A stretch of 64,000 nt of DNA from contig CAUYUJ010000026.1 of assembly GCA_963575745.1 (NCBI GenBank), positions 496,001 through 560,000 on the forward strand, in the 5' to 3' direction. The DNA is from Prorocentrum cordatum. Its lineage: Eukaryota. Numbering within the stretch: the first letter of the stretch is position 1; each line of letters starts with the position of its first letter. The notes beneath the pieces are model-generated. The model was given only the letters and a program-made list of their open reading frames with translations. It made no database searches and was not told where the DNA came from. Below are positions 1,921-57,277 of this stretch, one piece after another. A program made the position numbers and the translations under genes.

Positions 1921-3603
1921 GAGCCAGCATCGCAAAGCGGATTTCGTTCGGAAAAGAGTAGACGCGGCCCGAATTGTCCTGGAGAGTTTCGTTCCGGATT
2001 TCGAAGTGACTTTCGTGCTGGTTTTCCTGTGGTCAGGAATGAAGACAAAACAAAATCCACGAGACATTCATTTCGTTTTTCGCTCGCTGGTTCGGGGGCT
2101 TACATGGACAGGAATCCGAGCAAAAATCCGCTGCAGCACGTCTGCAAGGTCGGTTGGGAGTTGTGTCAGAGTCAGGCTGTGTCAAACAATCACCCCAAAC
2201 GATGCGAACCAGAAGGGCAGACATTTCCGCCTCAGATGCGTAGGGCGGAGTTTTCCGCAAAAGTATGGCGGATCCAGCGGCGGTCAGTGAATGTGGGTGG
2301 AGACCGACACGCCTGCCTTGGGCAGACATTTCTGGGCGGACACATCTCTGCCTTGCGCACGGAAATCCCCAAGAAGTACGGCAGATCCGAATTCGTGGTC
2401 CTCGTCGTCCTCGTTGCCGGCCCCGTCCTCTTATTCTCCCTCGTCCTCCGCCTGCTCCGACCCCCCGCCTCCCTTCCTCCTCTCTCTCCTGCGCCCCCTC
2501 TCTTCAGATGAGGGCTGACCTGAACGGTGTTTTTGGTGATTTCGTGGGCCGTTTTCGTTTCGACTTCGTTTTGAGGTCAAGGCGGATTCGAGACAAAAGC
2601 GAGGGAAAACGAAAACAAAACGAAAACGAAAAACACCGTTTCGGTTCAACGGTTCAGCCCTGCTTCAGATCCCGCGAAATCGATCCCCAGATCTCACCTG
2701 GGGTACGTTCTGAAGGGATCCCGGCCGTGGCGACAAGGAGCCCCACGGAGGCCCAGAGACGTTGAGCGCCGAACCAGGAGCCCGCCCCTCGATCCTCTGG
2801 TGCCCGCCCCGACCCTCGCTGCCTCCCTCCTCGATCCTCCTATGCCTCCCCGATCCTCGATGCGCCTCCCTCCCCGATCCTCGATGCCTCCATCCCCCCC
2901 CCCCCTGGCGCCTCCTCTCCGAGCCCAAAGTCGCCGCTCTTTGGGGCCCAGGCCGCGCGCGGCGAGGGCCCGTCGGGCGCGCGGTGCGGAGCGGGCCGCG
3001 CAGCGGCGGGGGAGGGAGTCCCCCCCCCGGGCGCCGGGGGACGCCGATTGCACGCCGAGGCCCTCGGTGGGGCCAGCTGCCGGGACGCCTCCGACGGCGA
3101 AGCCCCAGAGGGGCCGGAGGCAGGCCTCGCGGAAGGCACGGAGGAGGGGGAGGAGGGGGAGGGGGAGGGGGGGGAAGAGGAGGAGGAGGAGGACAAAAAA
3201 TCGGCGAGAGCCGACGACCCCGTCCGGCAGCCTCGGGCCTCGAGCCTCGGCGTCGGCGTGCAGCTGGCGTCCCCCCGGGCGCTGGGGGGGCGCCACTTGC
3301 GCGCCGACGCCGGCCCTGCCTCGCGGCGGGAGGCGGCAGGGGCGGGCAACCCAGGAGCGGGCGTCGAACCCAGACGGGGTCGCGGCGTGGCGAAATCAGG
3401 GCGGCAGGTTTTGGGCTATCTTCGGCACTCCTCCTCCTCCTCCTCCTCCTCCTCCTCCTCCTCCTCCTCCTCCTCCTCCTCCTCTTCCTCGAGTCCTCAC
3501 TAAGACCCTATGCAACCTCTGGTGGAGCCCCAGGATATTGCGATTCGGAGCTCATCATAGCCCCTTGCCGCTTTTCGCCCAGTCAGGCCTCCCAGCAGGA
3601 GAC

Positions 3604-3620
3604 ATACATATATACATAGA

Positions 3621-3656
<36 letters not shown>
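3604..3656. repeat. (TA)n microsatellite abutting the 5' end of the LINE remnant
   Basis: Direct observation. Confidence 0.95.
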
Positions 3657-3657
<1 letters not shown>

Positions 3658-3659
3658 CG

Positions 3660-6172
3660 ATGTGTTTGTAAAGGTTTATGCCCGTTCTGCATTCGGAACC
3701 CCCAAGTCTCCCTGGGCTCGTACATCGATGACGATACGGTCGCAATGTCAGGAGCAGAGGACGTCGTCGTCCGCACCTTGGTCGAGGCTGCTGCTGATTT
3801 GAAGCAAATTTTGGATGAGCGACTGGATGTTCGTCTGGCTGAGGACAAGGCCACCACCTTCGCGTCGACTCAGCGTGTTCTCGAGGCGCCTCACCAAGAA
3901 ACTGGCTTGATTCTGCCCCTCGCTCGCCTGCAACTCTGTGGTCTCCCTCGGCAGCGACTTGGCACCAGGACAACATCGGTCCTGCAAGCAAGGGTGAGCT
4001 GAGCTAAACGGAAAGAGAGGGTGAGGAGTATGAAGACAAGGCACGGTTTTCTCATTAATTTTCGGAGAACACTTCCACGGGATCGGACCCGAATGAGCAA
4101 GATCTATGTTTCTGGACTTCGGCCTGCTGCGGGCTACGGTACGATGATACTGGGGATGTCCGGCAAGGAACTAGGCGAGTTCCGCAGCGTCCTCTTGTCA
4201 GGTTATACGCCTGCTCATCGTGGAGTTTCTCTCTCTGCCAAGATCTGTACGCATGGAGACCCAGCCTGGATGCAGGCGACAGCCCCAGCGAGACAGTGGG
4301 CGAGTTCACTTTGGAGGAGTTTGACGACGCCGCACACCAGCCCCTTGAGCTTCAGAAAGCTCATTTGGATCTGGCGAACCCTGGAGGCCTTTCAGAGAGC
4401 ATGGTCTTGGTCCCCAGCAGTGGCGTACCTCCAGAGGCCGTGGCCATCGGATGCTCCTGAGCCTGCACAGACAAGTCTGGAACACTATCGATTTTCACTT
4501 CTGGCAAGATGATCTAGGCAGATTGATTGATTTAGTGTACACGTCGCCAGCCATGGTTTCGAGTTTGCTGCAGTCAGGCGTCCAGCGATCCCACGAGAGG
4601 TACCTCGCCGCGTCGACCACCTCCTTAGATGGTGAGCGTGTTTCGGTTGACCCCCTCCGCTCCCTTCTCCGCTCGAAGCGAACCACGCCGCGAGCGAGAT
4701 ATTAGAGCCACGCCTGTTTTGCTAAGGGTTGCTGGGCAGCCGACCGTCTAGTCGAGTCGTGCTATCATTCTGATGGCCTGTGCCCAAGCTGTGGCAAGCC
4801 TGACTCCGTCTTTCACCGCCAGTGGCTTTGTGATGCTCCTGAGTTGGCCCAGGCGCGAGCCGATGCCATTTCCCAGGACATCATTGACCTGGCTCGTGCG
4901 AGCCCCGCGGGGGAGCATGCCTTCTGGTCACGCCTGATGATGGCCCAGCCTGATCCTAAGATCTTCCCCCCTCCTTCCTCGGCGACGGACCCTCTGCTCC
5001 AGGATGGCGAAGGCAGGCCAATGCCGGTTCAGGAATTTGTCGGGAGGAGCGAGAGCTGCGACGTGGTCCTGGATGGCTCCGCCTCCTAGTGTATGATGGC
5101 TGATTTGAAACGTGCCAGCTTTGCGGCGGTTTTCCTGGAACCTGGACCCGAATACAAAGTTCGGACCCGTCTCATGGCCCCGCTTTGGCCATGCATGCGC
5201 CAGACTCCGCAGGCTGCTGAAAATGTTGGCATTGCCACTGTTTGTGCGCTCGCGATTGGGATGTCTACCCCTTACAGCGATTGCAAAGGCGCGGTCCGAC
5301 TGCACAATGCTGCGGACCAGGCCCAGTTAGGGCCTAAACACATGTTTGCTGGTGTGCGCCGTGCTGCCCAACAGGCCCCTGGTTTTGTGGCCGCGGGGGA
5401 AGCCCACTATACCCAAGCGCACCGTTCAGATGACATAGTCCAGGCACTTGACCAGAGAGGAATCGCGCTGGGCAATCAGGAAGCGGACCGTCTTGCAAAG
5501 TTCGCTCTCTCGCTCCATCCTCAGGCTGCACCTGCTGATCTTGAGGAGCTGGATAGGCGGGTGCATATCCTCTTCTCTTGTGCCAAGACGCTCGGGGCTG
5601 TCATGCCTCTTTTCACGAAGTTTGATGTCGTTCGGCCTCCGAAGGCCGCCCGCCTCTCCCGAGTGAAACCCCCGCCCGACTGGCATGAATGGGAGCAGCT
5701 CGAGGGAGGCGATTTCAGATGTTCGCGTTGATTTCTGGTGGCTTTCGCTGGCAAGGACCGACCTATGTTGGGGTGCGCTGGTCTGTCGACGGCCCTGCGG
5801 CGCCTCGAGGGTGCTGCGTCGGTTCGTTTTCACAAGTTTGGCTTTGCCACACTCAGCCGTACCCAGCAGCTTCTGATTTTCTGCACCAAGTATAGCGCGT
5901 ACACTTCCCGTAGGTGTCAATTGCTCGGCCAGCTATGTTCTGAAAAGCTGGGGGCCTCAGGAGAATGTGCCCTCAAGCGGATCGGTGACGGCCTCCGCCC
6001 TCACTACAGACGGGATGCTGAGGGTGCGGAAACTGTTTCTCGAGCGCCGCCCAAGACGGTGTTGTTTGCTCCTCCAGGCCCCGCTGCGGCAGGAAGTTCG
6101 CGCCTCGTCGACAACGATCGATTGCGTGCATTCGCCGGGCGGGTTCGGGCCAGAGAGGAGGCCGCCCGATAG
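3660..6172 (+). mobile_element. 5'-truncated, degraded non-LTR (LINE-like) retrotransposon: RT C-terminal half, CCHC zinc knuckle, RNase H, Cys-rich tail
   Basis: RT motif YIDD at 3721-3732. Zinc knuckle CPSCGKPDSVFHRQWLC from 4781. RNase H motifs VLDGS, QAAE, YSDC, QAH and GNQEADRLAK lie between ~5065 and 5500. In-frame stops at 4000, 4703, 5087 and 5729 and one frameshift near 4460. Confidence 0.88.
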
Positions 6173-43180: not shown

Positions 43181-44879
43181 CAGCGGTCGGAGGTTGGGGG
43201 GGCGAGATCGCAGTGGAACGGAGACCCCCCACCGGGAAACCGTTTCGTTTCGTTCGTGTCGTGCGTGCGGGCGGGGCGAAGCTGCGTGGGCGCGCGAGAG
43301 GAATGAACCATTCCGTCCGCCCGTCCGTCCGGCGGTGGCCCTAGCGGTGTCCCGCGTTGTCCCGTGTTGTCCCGTGGTGTCATATGGTGTCCCGTTGAGT
43401 GAGATCGATAGCGAGGCCGATAGTGAGACCGATAATGAGATCGACAGGTGTCCCGTGGTGTCCCGTGATGTCCCGTGGTGTCCCGTGGTGCCCCGTTGAG
43501 TGAGGTCGATAGTGAGATCGATAGTGAGATCGACAGGGTACCCGTGGTGTCTTATGGTGTCCCGTTGAGTGAGGTCGATAGTGAGATCGATAGTGAGATC
43601 GATGTGGTGTCCCGTGGTGTCCCGTGGTGTTCTATGGTGTCCTGTGGTGTCCCGTGATAGTGAGATCGATAGTGAGATCGACAGGTGTTGCGTGGTGTCC
43701 CGTGGTGTCCCGTGGTGTCCCGTTGAGTGAGATCGACAGGTGTCCCGAGGTGCCCCGTGGTGTCTTATGGTGTCCCGTTGAGTGAGATCGATAGTGAGAC
43801 CGATAGTGGGATCGAGAAGTGTCCCGCGGTGTCCCGTGGTGTCATGTGGTGGCCCGTGGTGTCCCGTGGTGTCCCGTTGAGTGAGATCGACAGTGAGATC
43901 GACAAGTGTCCCGTGGTGTCCCGTGGTGTCCTGTTGAGTGAGGTCGATAGCGAGATCGATTGAATCTGATGTTGGTTCCCCCCTATCCCCCCCCCACAAC
44001 CTCCTTATCACCCAAAGGGTGGTCGTATAGGTCTATCTCCATATTGTCGTAGGTACGAACATCTGAGAGGGGAGAGGGGGGGGGAGCCAGCATCTGACTC
44101 AATCGATCTCGCTATCGATCTCACTCAACGGGACACCACGGGACACCACCGACACCTGCCGATCTCATTGTCGATCTCACTCAATGGGACACCATGGGCC
44201 ATCACAGGACACCACGGGACACCGCGGGACACTTCTCGATCTCACTATCGGTCTCACTATCGATCTCACTATCGATCTCACTCAACGGGACACCATGGCA
44301 CACCACGGGACATCACAGGACACCTCGGGACACCTGTCGATCTCACTGTCGATCTTACTATCGACCTCACTATCGATCTCACTCAACGGGACACCACGGG
44401 ACACCACGGGACACCTGGTGATCTCACTGTCGATCTCACTATCGATTTCACTCAACGGGACACCACGGGACACCTCGGGATTCAGTATCGATCTCGCTAT
44501 CGATCTCACTATCGATCTCATTCAACGGGACACCACGGCACACCACGGGACATCGCGGGACACAGCTAGGGCCACCGCGGGACGGACGGACGGACGGACG
44601 GACGGGGCAACAACATTTGTCTTGACTTCGCCCCAGCAGCGGCGGACACCACGGGACACCGCGGGACACCACGGGACACCGCTAGGGCCACCGCCGGACA
44701 GACGGACGGACGGACGGACGGACGGACGGTGGAGCAACATTTGTCTTGACTTCGCCCGAGGCAACGGCGGGTTCATTCCCCTCGCGCGCCCACGCAGCTT
44801 CGCCTCGCCCGCACGCACGACACGAGCGAAACGAAACGGTTTCCTGGTTGCGATCTCACCCCCCGACCTCCGACCGCTG
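43181..44879. mobile_element. Foldback-type element: ~800-bp inverted arms containing tandem subrepeats, ~80-bp spacer
   Basis: Starts CAGCGGTCGGAGG and ends CCTCCGACCGCTG. Arms are built from GTGTCCCGTG and GATAGTGAGATC units on the left and their reverse complements on the right. Complementarity continues inward to ~43985/44075. Confidence 0.9.
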
Positions 44880-46280
44880 GATTCGACTTTCCAGACTTCC
44901 TGCGCGCCAAATACTGCACAAGAAGCGCCGTCAACTACCACAGGTCGTCCCAAAGAAGGCCCTGGATCCGAGGCGGGAATTTATTCATACCCACCGCCTG
45001 GAGGGTCAGTTTTCGGAGCCTCGGCAGGCGGTGGATGTGGATATAGTCGGGCCCCCGGGGGCTCACTCACTCACTCGCTCAACACAAAATTTCCGAAGTT
45101 CCGAAACCACAAAAACTCCCGGGGGCCGAAATATTGATTTATATATATATATATATATCCATATCCATATCCATATCCATATCCAGATCCACCGCCCGCT
45201 GGGGCGCCAGGACGTCGGCTGCCAGGCGGTGGATATGGAGAAAACCTCGCCTCGCACCGGAGGTCCCAGAGGCGGCCGGAGAGGAGACCAAGACGGCCGA
45301 AGAGGGCTTCCAGTCGGCCTCGGGAAGGACCGAAAGAGTGGGAGCGCGAAGGAGCACTCCGAGGTCAGACAGACAGACAGACAGAGCCCGCGCCGAGGCA
45401 CCTACGAGGGGTGCGGCGGGTGGTCGCCGGGGCGCCGATAAGGGTTGGCCGCGCAGAAACAGCCGGAGTTGGAGCGGTAAGAGCGAGAGTCGGAAAGACT
45501 CGGAGACGGTGACGGAGCCGGAGTCGGAAAGATGCATTGTATAGCCGGAGTCGGAAAGATGCACTCCGAGGTCAGCCGGCCCCAAAGTCCAAGGAGACGC
45601 CCCAAGAGGCCCTGGAAGGTGGCCGCACGACGACCCCAGGAGGCCAAAACTGTGCAGGGTTTTGTAGGTGTTCGCTGTGTTGGCTCGTGCATGAGTTCGA
45701 CGAGCAGAGTCGGCCCAACAGTGGCTGTGAACCACCACGGGGCATCCCAAAGAAGGCCCTGGAGAGCCCCAAGGCGGCACCTTGGAGGTCATCTTGGGCT
45801 CTCCGAGGCTCTCTTGAAGCCATCTTGGGCCATCTTGGGCGCTCATATCGGTGGACTCGAATTGGTCCGCAGCACCCGTCCAACCTTAGAGCGCCCACTG
45901 CTACTTCCAACATTTGTCTACAAGTTCCAACGCACAGCTCGATGCAGCGGCAAACGCACTGACCCGTGATCCTGACCCTCAGGTATATTCACGGGCGCAT
46001 CGTGTTGCGTGTCTTGTTTCCTACGTTCGACATCGCGGAAAGCCAGCTCACCGCGAGTAAGGACTTGAGTTGAATTTTGGCCGCTCGCCGCGTTTCTGGC
46101 CTCACCTAAAACCTAAGCGAGCGCGTAGCGCGCGGGTGGTTCTAATCAGATGTATGGGTGACCCTGAAGTTTTGGAGTGACTCATATTTCCCGCAGTGAC
46201 GAAAAGTCTGATTGGATTTGGCGCCCGAGACCATAATATGACTAGCGGTGCTGAAGACATTTGCGCTAACCCCGATACGT

Positions 46281-46316
46281 ACGTAGGCAACTTGGCTCGG
46301 ACCAGCCTTACTCAAG
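46281..46316 (+). other. Two tandem degenerate spliced-leader relicts
   Basis: ACGTAGGCAACTTGGCTCGGA matches CCGTAGCCATTTTGGCTCAAG at 14/21. It is followed directly by CCAGCCTTACTCAAG, 10/15 to CCATTTTGGCTCAAG, without gaps and 16 nt before an ATG. Confidence 0.6.
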
Positions 46317-46332
46317 CACCGATTGCAGTGCA

Positions 46333-47659
46333 ATGCATCTTGGCCTGGTCGGCTACCCCTGTGCGATCCAGGCGCAGAGTCCGCGATTCGCTGGCGCAGT
46401 CGAAGTAGCCCAAGCTTACGCAGCAGATGTGCACGCTCATGTCCGAAGCCACATCGGCTTGACTCGTGCCGAAGTGCATGTTACCCTCTGGGGCTGGATC
46501 GGGCGCTTCAAGACGCATTTGCTCAACACGTATTCTGGCAAACCGGTTGAAGCAGCACAGTTTGGATCAGCGCATTGCTGATCTACCTCGAACGCAAGCG
46601 GTATTCGCGGGCAGTCGGTGTCTTCTGTTTGGTGTGAACGGCAAGGTCCGTGGACGAATTCTGGAAGTCGCTGCGCGAGAAAGGGATCGATCGTTGCATC
46701 CGTCTTGCAGGATTGTGGGCGCGCAGGACACTCTAAAGCTCCCAGGAAGTGACGCTCCGTTCGGTTGGTTGCGGGTTGATGGCCTCGGCTTTGAAACCCG
46801 AGTGGAGCATAAGTCAGCATAGCTGTCTTGGGATAAGTCTGGTAAGCGTCGGACCGCTACATTTCAAGGTATCAAGATTGATCAGCACGATGAACTACAA
46901 TTGGCATTATTAACGCCACCGGCAGTGCTTTGTTTTATCCTTGGAGATTCGGCTTGGCCCATTGTTGGCAAGGCATGTGGACGAAAAGGGAGGATCATCC
47001 GTCTAGTAGGACCGTGCGGGAAATTTCATGCCGACAGTGCGTTGCAGAACATGGTCACAAAGGTTGCTGCAGTGAGTTCAGTGTTTTCGAATCCTTACGA
47101 TGATCCGATATTCAAGTGGGCAGCAGCTTCGTGTACATCCCGCACACATGAGATCTACGCGGCCCTCGGGTGCCCATTCAACGGCTTAGACATCCGTTCG
47201 CGAGGCATGTTGTTCGAAACCATCGCGCGAACCCGTGACGCTGAGCGGCATACTGAGTCTGATGCTGACCACGCAGATGTATGTTTTGGCGCTGATGGGA
47301 GGCAGTTGCATGCCTCGATTCGCAAATATGATTGGAAGAGAACACACAGTCACAGTAGATCTCACGTAAGAGTTGAACACAATTCTGCCCAAGTAACATT
47401 GGACAGCACAAACAGGCGTTGGAGAGCTGAATGGAAGGGGGTGGTGTCAGACAATCACGACGAGCTGCAACTCACATTGTACTCGCCGAAGGCTTTGCGC
47501 ACATTCATTCACGATGGCTCTACAAGACTATTTAGAAGTTCCGAGCGTGACGTGGAATTTTCGGGGCCCAAGGGCGAACATGACATTCCCCGTTGTATGT
47601 CTGTACTATTGCATAAACTTGTCGTGGTTTTCGGTTCGCCAGCGACCGAATACTTTTGA
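46333..47659 (+). pseudogene. Intronless processed pseudogene with two tandem ~184-aa domains, putatively PD-(D/E)XK nuclease-like
   Basis: ORFs 46466-46822 and 46901-47659 share a frame and are separated only by TAG at 46820-46822. An internal duplication with ~552-nt period is visible (RVEHKSA*/RVEHNSAQ; HDELQLALLTP/HDELQLTLYSP). The ATG at 46333 probably joins this frame through a frameshift near 46563. SL relicts lie just upstream. Confidence 0.65.
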
Positions 47660-50105
47660 ATATCTAGTGCCGCGTTGACCATTGCGATGACACAATCGTT
47701 GTGCGTTGCTTCGGTTACAAGTGCGATCTACTGATCGCAAACACCCTCGTACCTGGAGCGTCATCGCGTTTTAAAGTCGGCTTGGTCAAGAGCATCGTAT
47801 TCAGGACCACTTGTAGACCAGCTTTGATCGGGATGATCGGGGGTGTGGGGGAAACAGTAGGAGAGGAGGATGAGAAGGAGGAGGATGAGGTGGGAGAGAA
47901 GGGGAGGAGGAGGCGGGGCATACCCCTGAGGAGGCGGAGGGGGACAACGCGGAGGAGGCAGCTGGCGGTGGAGTAGGCGGAGGAGGAGGAGGAAGTGGAG
48001 GAGAAGGTGGACGACGACGAGCAGCAGCAGTAGCAAGAGGAGCAGCACGAACAGGGTCGGCCAGGTCGTGATCGGGATCGCCTTGTGGAGCGGCCTGCAT
48101 CCAGAGACGGGAAGGCGCGCCGACGGCCTCCAGAGGCCCCCGGGGGCCCCCCTGGAGGCTACTTGGAGGCCTCCGAAGGCCTCCCCAAGGCCCCGAAGCT
48201 GCTCGCAGCGCCATAAAAACTTGCTCGCAGCGCCTCGATCCTCGAGCCTCGAACGTCGTGCCTCGTTCCTCGCGCCTCGCTCCTCGATCCTCGGGTCTCG
48301 ATCCCCCGCACGACCGAGGTGGCCGACCAGGTGTCGCCACAGGAGGAGCGCCCCCGAAGCCCAGGGGCGGGGAAGCAGGCCGGGCGGGCGGCGGTCTCGC
48401 TTCGAGGCGGCGTGCCGCTGGCCCTCTGCAGCCCTCGGTGGCCCGCGGGCCAGGGGAAGAGGGAGGAGGAGGAGGAGGAGGAGGAGGAGGAGGAGGAGGA
48501 GGAGGAGGAGGAGGAGACGCGTTGCGAGAGGAGGAGGAGGAGGAGGAGGAGGAGGAGGAGGAGCAGGAGACGCGTTGCGAGGGGAGGAGGAGGTGGAGGA
48601 GGATGGGGAGGAGGATAACCATGGTGATGAGGAGCAGGAGGAGGAGAAGCATGGCGAGGAGGATGAGGAGGAGGAGGAGGAGGAGGAGGAGGAGGAGGAG
48701 GAGGAGGGGCATGACGGGCGGGGGGGGGGGGGGGGCACGCCACGGGAGAAGCGTAAGCCCTGCAAAATGCAGGACCGAGTGCTGACCCGTGCAGGCGGGA
48801 TGGGGGACGTGCAGGCAGCACGAAAAGGGGGAAGCCCCTGCGGTCAGGAACTGGTGGGCGTGTTTTCCGCCACCACCACCCTAAGCAAGAGGAGGAGGGG
48901 GTCCTCCTCCTCCTGCTCCTCCTCCTCCTCCTCCTCTTCCTCCTCCTCCTCCTCCTCCTCCTCCTCGTCCTTCCCCACTCCAACTTGTGGTGGTGGTGGC
49001 GGTGGAAAACAAGCCCATCAGGAACTGCTGCTCAGCGTGTCGCGGCGGCGGTCCCAGAGGCACGCCGTGCCTTGCGAGTGGGCGGGAGGCTTGGACAAAT
49101 TCGGGACGCTGTCGCTCGGAGGCCAGGAAGTGGTTAGCGTGTCGTGCCGGGGCTTGGAGGGTCAGAACCGGCGGAGCGACACGTCAAGCCAACATTCCCG
49201 ACTTTATCACAGCGAGATCAGGATGCCCGGTGGGAGCTCGGGCTGCGGACCAGGAGGAGGAGGAGGAGGAGGAGGAAGAGAAGGAGGAGAAGGAGGAGGA
49301 GGAGGATGAGGAGAGTCGAGGACGAGGGGGAGGAGAAGGAAAGGAGGCGAGGGAAGATGAGCACGGAGGAGTAGCGAGGAAGAGGAGGAGGGATGAGGGA
49401 TGATGGAGGAAGAAGTCAGATACAGCCCTTGGATACGGTCGCTGTGGTAGGAAGGACTGCAGGCTCGCACTTGGGGTGCTCGGCTCTGGAGTGCACTGCC
49501 ATGGGGCAGATGGCTGACAAGAACGAGGCCATTCGGCAGGAGCACGAAAGGCAGACGGGAAGGAGAAGGAAAAGGAGGGCGGAGAAGAGGAGCAAGGTGA
49601 TGAGGAGGATTGGAAGGCGCAGGGGGATGCGGGGCGAAGACTGGGCGAACGGGGTGAAGGGGGATAGGCAGAGCATGAGGGGATGCTATATGTGGTGTCC
49701 AAAACCAAATAGGGGAGCCGTCCAACACAACATCCGGCGCGCTCGAAACCTTGTGGGGGGCGCTTCCACGGACGCTTGAAGTGATGTCTGGGGATCTTGA
49801 AAGCTCGAGAAAGGAGCTTCACAGGAGCCCAGGAAGGGGTTGCGAAGGAGCTGCGCAAAGGCTTGCGTCACACGGGCTGGGAACGAATAGGACAACGTCT
49901 TCGGGAGGACAAGCTGACACCTCCAGCGAGCCGCTGCGAGGCTCCATGCTCAGCAGCCGGGAGAGGACGCTGGGCTGCCCTGTGCTGCTGGCTTCGAATC
50001 CGAAGCCATCTTAGCTCTCCAGGGAGCTGTCCAGGAAACGGAGGGACGGCGGGGGCAGATGCGCGCGCCCATGACCTGACGAGGGTTCGTTGACATGTCG
50101 ACTTG

Positions 50106-55856: not shown

Positions 55857-57008
55857 TAAGGGGGAGGAGGGACAGTGAGGAGGTTGCGCATCATGGCTGG
55901 AGCCAGCATTGGCAAGTGTGCCACGCGGGAGCTGAGCAGACGAGCGGCGTGGCCACGCGCTCGCAGGGAGCACGTGCACGGAGCTCGACGTAAGCAGCCC
56001 ATCGCGCCTTCAGACTTGCAGTAGGGATCTTAGCATGACCTGGGGCACGAAAGAACACGTGGCCGTGGGCACGCCGTGCCGCGTCACACGTGGTTGGTGT
56101 GCGCGCTCGCGCGTTCGCAGGCGCACATGTGTCGGTCCGCGGACGCCAGGGTGCACGGGACGGTCACGCGCTGGTCAAAACGAGCGCTGGGCTGCACCGG
56201 AAGCTGATCCAGGCACGGCGCGAAAGAGCAAGAGACGAGAGCGGAGACAGAGACGGGGCCCGATCAGACCGTGAAGGTCGGCGCGGGAGTGCCGGGAGGG
56301 CGTGCTTCGCAGGCGCACGCGCGCAGGGCCATGTCATTTCGCTTCCACGGCCCCGAGAGGCGAACAGCGGTACCCATAGTTGAAGGTAGGAGTTCTGCAC
56401 TCCCAGACTTATTACTTTAGCCTTGACCACCAAGAAGAATTTCGAGCACCAGAAAAATACCGAAACTCTAGCGTTTTTCACGTGTCGGGCCCTGGGAGAC
56501 GCTATTTCGACACTGTTTCGACACTCTTTCGACATTTTTCCGCGTGCTCGAAATTATTTCTGGGAGGTGGTCCTTAAGTACGATGGAAGCGACATAATCC
56601 CAGACGTCAATCTACTTCGGGCGCCTTCCGCTCTCAGTGGTCTTCCCTCCCCTTCCGGGGGGGGCGGACGGAGATCCAATATTCTTCCCAAGGCTGGGAA
56701 ACTTCGAGGCAGAAGACGATGCGGGAGGGGCAGGGAAATGGGGAGCAGAGGACAAGGAACAGGGGGAGTGGGTGGGGGGCGAGGGAAGAGTCACAGCCGC
56801 AGCGAGCACTCCTATCTGTGGAGCCCTTCTCCGGGCGTGCGCCTAGAACGCATCTTGCTCTTGCCTACCCGTTCATGTGCGCCGCTGGGCGAACTGAGCG
56901 TCGCGTGAAAAGCGCCCGTCTGAAAGGCTGGATGATCGTATCTGACGGGGCAGTTGGACGGTGCATGAGGAGCACGGCGAGGGGCAAGAGGGGTGCATCG
57001 TAGGATGT

Positions 57009-57042
57009 GTAGCCGTTCCGGCTCAGGCTGTCGTGGCTCAGG
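57009..57042 (+). other. Two tandem relict dinoflagellate spliced-leader sequences upstream of RPS30
   Basis: GTAGCCGTTCCGGCTCAGG (57009-57027) matches GTAGCCATTTTGGCTCAAG at 15/19, all mismatches transitions. It is followed directly by CTGTCGTGGCTCAGG (57028-57042), 10/15 to CCATTTTGGCTCAAG. Confidence 0.85.
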
Positions 57043-57091
57043 CCGGCGTTTGACCCGAGCGGCGCCGCCAGGAGGGGCCCCCGCAGCGGAG

Positions 57092-57277
57092 ATGGGCAAG
57101 GTCCACGGAAGCCTGGCGCGCGCCGGCAAGGTCAAGAACCAGACCCCGAAGGTCGCGAAGGCGGAGAAGAAGAAGGTCCTGACGGGCAGGGCCAAGAAGC
57201 GGTTGGTGTACAACCGCCGCTTCGTCACCGTCGTGAAGGGCGGGCCGAAGCGCGGGCCGAACTCCAACCAGAAGTGA
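57092..57277 (+). CDS. RPS30: 40S ribosomal protein S30 (eS30), intronless, no ubiquitin-like fusion
   Basis: ATG at 57092 to TGA at 57277 reads [61 protein letters not shown]. This carries the universal eS30 signature [18 protein letters not shown]...YNRRF...GPNS. Third codon positions are strongly G/C biased. Confidence 0.97.

Follow-up and report, generated by a model that had tools for sequence, protein, structure and literature searches.

In the part of PMC11347163 consulted here, the BisI-family restriction enzymes NhoI and Eco15I are described as homodimers, PvuII is their closest canonical relative, and the Asp motif of NhoI reads "WD". Single-chain PvuII (3ksk), an engineered tandem fusion, puts two nuclease subunits on one polypeptide. 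A second described system is that of retrogenes marked by the dinoflagellate spliced leader (DinoSL), whose intronless open reading frame is preceded, on the same strand, by a leader relict and a second, truncated relict adjoining it (Slamovits and Keeling, 2008, as reviewed in the part of PMC6050394 consulted). We analyzed a 64,000-nt stretch of Prorocentrum cordatum DNA (contig CAUYUJ010000026.1, positions 496,001 to 560,000; "the window" below) and focus on its positions 46281-47659 (+ strand). We consider it fairly probable that this segment is a transcribed processed pseudogene of a multi-copy dinoflagellate gene, and that the intact gene encodes a 393-amino-acid (aa) nuclease built of two PD-(D/E)XK units. 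The features of the segment, in window coordinates, are as follows.

46281..46301, + strand: DinoSL relict, 14/21 positions matching the leader.
46302..46316, + strand: truncated leader relict directly abutting the first, 10/15 positions; the two combined, 24/36.
46317..46477, + strand: 5' untranslated region, including an additional leader-like 21-mer at 46443-46463 (14/21).
46478..47659, + strand: coding sequence of the two-unit protein, 393 codons including one TAG, plus TGA; collinear with three intact 393-aa homologues.
46586..47083, + strand: unit 1, PD-(D/E)XK-like domain (unit model E 3.3e-29), with Glu at 46664-46666 and ExK at 46805-46813.
46763..46765, + strand: GGT (Gly) replacing the putative catalytic Asp of unit 1, which is Asp in 117/129 first units.
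46820..46822, + strand: in-frame TAG, falling after codon 114; Leu, Gln or Ser in homologues.
47138..47638, + strand: unit 2, PD-(D/E)XK-like domain (unit model E 3.2e-38), with Asp at 47330-47332 and Glu at 47375-47377.
47381..47383, + strand: AAT (Asn) replacing the ExK Lys of unit 2, which is Lys in 120/129 second units; the window copy alone has Asn.
47660..47830, + strand: 3' flank of an AT-richer island, with no remnant of poly(A); from ~47845 on, the sequence is a purine-rich repeat.

The + frame is open from 46463 to the TGA at 47657-47659, and the TAG is its sole interruption. The closest homologues, from a search of 5.8 billion proteins, are all 393 aa long: CAK0811143.1, an unnamed P. 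cordatum protein (84% identity), a JGI protein (78%) and a Logan protein (64%). Met1 of all three aligns with the ATG at 46478, and the alignments are collinear to the end with just two single-residue gaps. The gene therefore spans 46478-47659 and is intronless, as the initial annotation had stated. That annotation had also placed a frameshift near 46563; since Met1 of the homologues falls at ATG 46478 and the frame continues from there, no frameshift is needed and the sequence upstream is untranslated. The AT-richer island it had described is real, with a G+C fraction (GC) of 0.48-0.58 over ~45900-47850 against 0.59-0.73 in the surroundings.

The two homologous units that had been seen in this one frame are supported by three comparisons. 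In BLASTP, the sequences on either side of the TAG match each other (E 5e-7). In each of the three intact homologues, the N-terminal half aligns with the C-terminal half at scores of 210-226, corresponding to z values of 34-41 against 200 shuffles each (mean ~31, standard deviation ~5). In the read-through translation, a hidden Markov model of the unit matches residues 42-207 and 226-392; of 165 family proteins, it finds 144 with two units. The duplication is diverged, with a median identity of 0.35 between a protein's own two units (137 two-unit proteins). For 234 of 274 units the nearest relative is the same-position unit of another protein, and for only 13 it is the partner in the same chain. 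We therefore conclude that one old duplication is common to most of the family and that a few lineages have re-duplicated or homogenized their units.

This family is large. When 1.84 billion representatives were searched with a profile, E<=1e-3 was reached by at least 344 clusters (at 50% identity), E<=1e-10 by 182 and E<=1e-30 by 14; most matches were 360-440 aa long and had two matched stretches. Together with the three 393-aa proteins, these clusters provide the intact homologues on which the initial annotation depended. The Asp and ExK positions it had expected to be conserved are so: across units, the Asp of a (Y/F)DW motif is present in 262/295, the ExK Glu in 237/296 and the ExK Lys in 277/296, and a later Asp in 275/296. 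The core helix opens with Arg-Gly (Arg in 273 and Gly in 243 of 282 units). Its choice of catalytic Asp requires correction, as it had taken the Asp of "RVDG"; the conserved residue is instead that of (Y/F)DW, which reads FGW in unit 1 of the window copy. Among 129 two-unit proteins, the set of Asp, Glu or Asp, and Lys is complete in both units of 94, in unit 2 only of nine and in unit 1 only of five. Intact examples that read E-D-E-K in both units include CAK0799293.1, a P. cordatum protein of 381 aa, and proteins of the 393-aa P0003 type.

The predicted structure supports the PD-(D/E)XK fold that had been proposed from motifs. With 142 family sequences, AlphaFold2 gave a model of a P. cordatum paralogue with a mean predicted local distance difference test score (pLDDT) of 90.6 and a predicted template modeling score of 0.83; a model from four sequences (pLDDT 32) was discarded. 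Foldseek against the PDB returned I-Ssp6803I (E 8.8e-4, probability 0.99) and single-chain PvuII (E 9.9e-4, 362 columns), followed at lower rank by Hjc, NhoI, SPARDA nuclease domains, DpnI, SwaI, EcoRV and RecU. A VIA-align search of 48,161 representative chains gave I-Ssp6803I at Z 8.6 (122 aligned residues), NhoI at 8.6, Hjc at 7.2 and 7.0, EcoRV at 6.8, the Eco15I N-terminal domain at 6.6 and single-chain PvuII at 6.4 (229 residues, 25-391). Going by titles and recall, we take most of the 50 listed VIA-align rows to be PD-(D/E)XK-type nucleases. When the Foldseek matches were realigned with VIA-align, unit 1 gave NhoI (Z 8.7) and the Eco15I N-terminal domain (Z 8.3), and unit 2 gave I-Ssp6803I (Z 8.9), Hjc (Z 8.0) and EcoRV (Z 7.3); RecU was also among the structural matches (Z 6.1). 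Each unit collects solved PD-(D/E)XK nucleases, at Z 6-8.9. In both units of the model the Glu lies within a helix, the Asp immediately before a strand and the ExK inside the following strand, which is the canonical PD-(D/E)XK arrangement as given in the part of PMC11347163 consulted. The assignment of a PD-(D/E)XK core to both units of the predicted structure is supported because the list is uniform and the motifs are so placed, not because of any single score. A protein atlas returned concordant leads only (phage hypothetical proteins, Bsp6I, DpnI and PDDEXK_5).

At the sequence level, the sole link to a known family model is PDLC03515, the Type II restriction endonuclease model (REase_II) of PADLOC. 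It was matched by three of 62 members (E 3.6e-7, 4.8e-7 and 3e-4) at positions 67-126 of 186, which cover the Asp..ExK core; member P0002 did not match.

Several results count against a nuclease assignment. No Pfam family matched the window protein at E<=10, and none of 55 relatives reached a curated Pfam cut-off. NCBIfam gave only isolated matches to unrelated families (E 7e-4 to 9e-3), and searches of the PDB by sequence and by profile gave only matches with E>1. Structurally, just two PDB chains reached E<=1e-3 in Foldseek, and all Z scores are middling (<=8.9), a Z of 7-8 being the typical best score even for models that have no clear match. The helix Glu is present in only 61/129 first and 74/129 second units, its place otherwise being taken by Gln, Ala or Thr. 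Asp/Glu/Lys is missing from both units in 21/129 two-unit relatives, and a single-unit subgroup of ~220 aa (P0174-P0188) reads T-D-A-K in 12/12 members seen. Some family members are thus probably non-catalytic; the residues of P0174-P0188 suggest a conserved non-catalytic branch.

Other candidate relationships were set aside. Sub-threshold Pfam matches among the 55 relatives were to DUF3024 (5/55) and DUF4420 (1/55), for which we found no related literature. A relation to the RAP domain, prompted by PMC8190603, had no Pfam support in the window protein or the 55 relatives. PHROGs gave nothing useful (three unnamed families in 1-2 of 60 members). No annotated prokaryotic relatives were found in a word-indexed protein database, where the family alignment had five matches and a single-unit alignment 29. 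No curated family covers these two-unit proteins, a large family for which Pfam has no model, and judged by titles, the literature on dinoflagellate restriction endonuclease-like nucleases and PDDEXK held no account of such a family.

How the family compares with its nearest structural neighbors depends on which neighbor is considered. BisI-family enzymes are defined by a QxK variant of the motif and by their dependence on several 5mC/5hmC in GCNGC. Their structures (PDB 8rpx, 8q5n, 8q5o) resemble the family units in subunit size (~150-170 aa) and in the layout of helix Glu, x-Asp and x-x-Lys, and NhoI superimposes on unit 1 over 122 residues with a root-mean-square deviation (rmsd) of 3.6. 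They differ in consisting of two separate chains, in carrying a QxK motif, in being bacterial and in having no sequence-level match to the family. The family has a Glu in ExK in 237/296 units and so lacks the QxK of the BisI family; the likeness is at fold level only. Single-chain PvuII and PvuII (1ni0) align with the whole model over 227-229 residues spanning 25-392 (Z 6.2-6.4). The idea is the same, two nuclease subunits per polypeptide, but single-chain PvuII is man-made whereas the family is natural and its duplication old; at an rmsd of 6.8-7.3 Å, the units may be placed differently relative to each other. I-Ssp6803I (2ost), an intron-encoded tetramer, is the best match of unit 2 (Z 8.6-8.9 over 119-122 residues), but identity is 9-16% and the window shows no intron or homing context. 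Archaeal Hjc (2wcw, 1gef; Z 7.0-8.0 over ~100 residues) has Glu, Asp and ExK in the same order at similar spacing, but family units are ~50 residues longer and two are fused per chain.

We infer from the model and the motifs that intact paralogues would cleave DNA and act as pseudo-dimers; that they are Mg2+-dependent DNA endonucleases is the best-supported reading. The intact protein consists of two anciently duplicated units; in each, the core helix bears the Glu, the second strand begins with the Asp and the third strand holds ExK. In intact paralogues, the packing of the two units would resemble that between subunits in a PvuII/BisI-like type II restriction homodimer, and the single chain would bind duplex DNA with one Mg2+ site per unit, each site cutting one strand. 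The window copy is incapable of this, given the TAG, the Gly for Asp in unit 1 and the Asn for Lys in unit 2.

The data do not separate restriction-like, homing-type and resolvase-like roles. A possible, though unlikely, alternative is that intact members are structure-specific nucleases such as Hjc- or RecU-like resolvases, or free-standing homing-type endonucleases, and are not restriction-like. I-Ssp6803I and Hjc tie with NhoI at the top of the structural lists, RecU appears below them, and the many diverged paralogues with frequent loss of catalytic residues are as expected of selfish elements. However, the one known family model reached by sequence is that of a Type II restriction enzyme, and the whole chain aligns with single-chain PvuII. 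In addition, no Pfam match to RecU was found in the window protein or the 55 relatives, and the Pfam Hjc family was not matched by the window protein at E<=10 nor listed for the relatives at E<=0.01.

A more specific version of the restriction-like role is, in our view, a long shot. It holds that the intact proteins form a natural single-chain restriction-type family, common to dinoflagellates or other marine protists and to giant viruses, that discriminates DNA by base modification in virus-host conflict. Host DNA rich in 5-hydroxymethyluracil or 5-methylcytosine would be told apart from unmodified or differently modified foreign DNA, and the proteins would be a eukaryotic counterpart of (modification-dependent) restriction serving one or both sides. 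The only lead to the antiviral or modified-base role that the initial annotation had suggested is by analogy: NhoI and Eco15I, both modification-dependent, share in the tie at the top of the structural matches.

The initial annotation called the segment a spliced-leader-marked retrocopy; the leader relict is weak, though it exceeds chance. We checked the leader sequence against the consulted part of PMC6050394. Sites matching the leader 21-mer at >=14/21 occur six times in the window against 8.6 +/- 3.3 in 100 simulations, so the 21-mer by itself is no evidence. We also scored a composite pattern in which the leader runs straight into a second copy cut short at the internal AG, as expected of recycled cDNAs. 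The composite match at 46281 (24/36) is the second best in the window, and only one of 200 Markov-simulated windows reached 24. The best composite site, 25/36 at 57007-57042, lies ~50 nt before an intronless gene for ribosomal protein S30, and this gives the composite test an internal positive control. Identical 418-nt contigs from runs X1 and X2, which come from two studies, begin four letters before 46285, at the AG within the relict. Likeness to a paralogue contig (X1 record 2) begins only at 46435, beside the leader-like 21-mer at 46443.

The S30 gene itself (+ strand) has 61 codons, with ATG at 57092 and TGA at 57275-57277 (Pfam Ribosomal_S30, E 3.6e-27), and 57007-57277 is a second leader-marked retrocopy in the window.

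Evidence of the opposite sign also has to be set beside the composite match. The 14/21 match at 46281 is at chance level when taken alone, and the four contig letters before 46285 could not be read. No poly(A) remnant was found (no run of >=6 A in 47001-48500), nor any target-site duplication or flanking direct or inverted repeat around the island. Compared with described DinoSL-marked retrogenes, the window relict is strongly decayed, there is no trace of poly(A), and the copy is dead rather than surviving. Overall, the retrocopy reading has moderate support. Since leader-marked retrogenes are common in dinoflagellates according to the consulted part of PMC6050394, this aspect of the locus is ordinary.

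An alternative is that the segment is no retrocopy but an intronless gene spread as DNA, as a giant-virus fragment or a mobile element, with the leader likeness due to chance, the low G+C reflecting foreign ancestry and the family being of viral origin. The distribution of the family bears on this. Organisms were named for six of 20 clusters looked up: P. cordatum (two clusters), Symbiodinium sp. CCMP2592 (1005 aa; genome record), Gymnodinium smaydae and Polykrikos kofoidii (transcriptomes), and the bolidophytes Triparma strigata and T. verrucosa (191 aa, single unit). Two contigs of a giant-virus metagenome-assembled genome (MAG) and one further IMG/VR contig, with GC 0.39-0.41, carry members that, within the reach of the contigs, have all catalytic residues (E-D-E-K) in both units. 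The best BFVD matches are uncharacterized proteins of Klosneuvirus, Hyperionvirus and an Aureococcus virus, aligned over 345-365 columns. A further member with E-D-E-K in both units, P0167, sits on a 42.7-kb metagenome contig (L001; GC 0.57) whose stretch 1-21068 is ~90% coding. Encoded around it are a ribonucleotide reductase alpha subunit, a ResIII-type helicase of 1582 aa, an AAA ATPase, an HNH_3 protein (HNH endonuclease) and a ClpP-like protease, for which phage prohead proteases rank highest in NCBIfam; this contig looks viral. The protein atlas gave nothing for a neighboring reading frame on it.

Some further observations concern individual members. On one giant-virus MAG contig (L004), a C5 cytosine DNA methyltransferase (PF00145, E 1.2e-45) is encoded at 3075-4559, 5.4 kb upstream of a member with an intact set of catalytic residues; being non-adjacent, the two are only a hint of a restriction-modification-like pairing. 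P0150 (621 aa) has an EsV-1-7 cysteine-rich motif N-terminal to both units, at 24.8 bits just below the Pfam cut-off of 25, and one BFVD match is a C2H2-domain Hyperionvirus protein; both may be fusions to DNA-binding modules. No related loci were found for P0003 among metagenome contigs, or for P0036 and P0167 among viral contigs.

These viral members, together with the missing poly(A) remnant, are what spread as DNA would lead one to expect. So is the composition of the coding sequence, which has GC 0.517 and GC at third codon positions of 0.497; the window as a whole has 0.617, and the part of PMC10666404 consulted gives a mean of 65.9% for P. cordatum coding sequences. On the other side, the composite leader match is rare by chance and coincides with contig starts in two studies, the absence of inverted repeats or duplications at the island's edges does not favor a mobile element, and members are named from further dinoflagellates. 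A viral origin of the family is plausible, but it is compatible with later retroposition inside the host. We thus regard spread as DNA as rather improbable and infer that the segment arose by retroposition.

The window copy is disabled, as had been proposed. In addition to the TAG and the changes at the conserved unit-1 Asp and unit-2 Lys, a Leu stands in place of the family-conserved Trp at 47399-47401. Its sites read E-G-E-K in unit 1 and E-D-E-N in unit 2, so neither unit has a complete Asp/ExK set. Paralogue contigs from three runs have G at 47383 (AAG, Lys) and G at 47400 (Trp). Runs X1 and X2 each contain, besides the 418-nt contig matching 46285-46698, a 494-nt contig matching 46672-47165; both are without differences, and the longer one spans the TAG. 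The lesions are therefore not assembly errors, and on the strength of the TAG, Asp to Gly and Lys to Asn we read the window copy as a pseudogene. X1 and X2 have no cover on 45877-46261 and 47571-48100, while the DNA run X9 is exact on 47193-47505 and 47604-47858; because flank cover is missing from X1 and X2 where X9 has it, these two runs behave like RNA. The dead copy is thus probably transcribed, a reading weakened in that the RNA nature of X1 and X2 is only a guess. Paralogues 90-95% alike are found in the poly(A) metatranscriptome X19. That the window copy is still functional, its TAG being allelic, read through or edited and its product a non-catalytic DNA-binding factor, is very improbable: exact copies in RNA-like runs, a frame otherwise intact over 393 codons and the persistence of non-catalytic subgroups would fit, but contigs from two studies carry the same TAG, three independent changes hit conserved positions at which paralogue contigs keep Lys and Trp, and nothing known to us or seen here points to TAG reassignment in this lineage.

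The surroundings of the island are repetitive. A purine-rich GAG/GGA repeat field at 47845-48600 adjoins it on the 3' side, with strong GC and AT skew and 23 copies in repeat family D1. Upstream, 45780-45850 contains short repeats of type GCCATCTTGGG, similar to the spliced-leader core; their word depth of ~6245 in DNA run X9, against ~2.5 for single-copy sequence, marks a very high-copy element. Further upstream, a long array of interleaved short repeats (cgatctcact.. / gggacaccac..) occupies 44060-44560, followed by (ggac)n tracts at 44580-44730.

Taken by itself, the locus is an ordinary pseudogene, probably a dead retrocopy; what it reveals is a natural single-chain form that is new to an already known enzyme superfamily. 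The fusion of two PD-(D/E)XK units found here in nature is the arrangement that was engineered in single-chain PvuII. If intact members cut DNA, they would be candidate restriction-like enzymes, of nuclei or viruses, in organisms whose DNA is heavily modified, or candidate selfish endonucleases shaping very large genomes, and they would be candidates for new sequence- or modification-specific tools.

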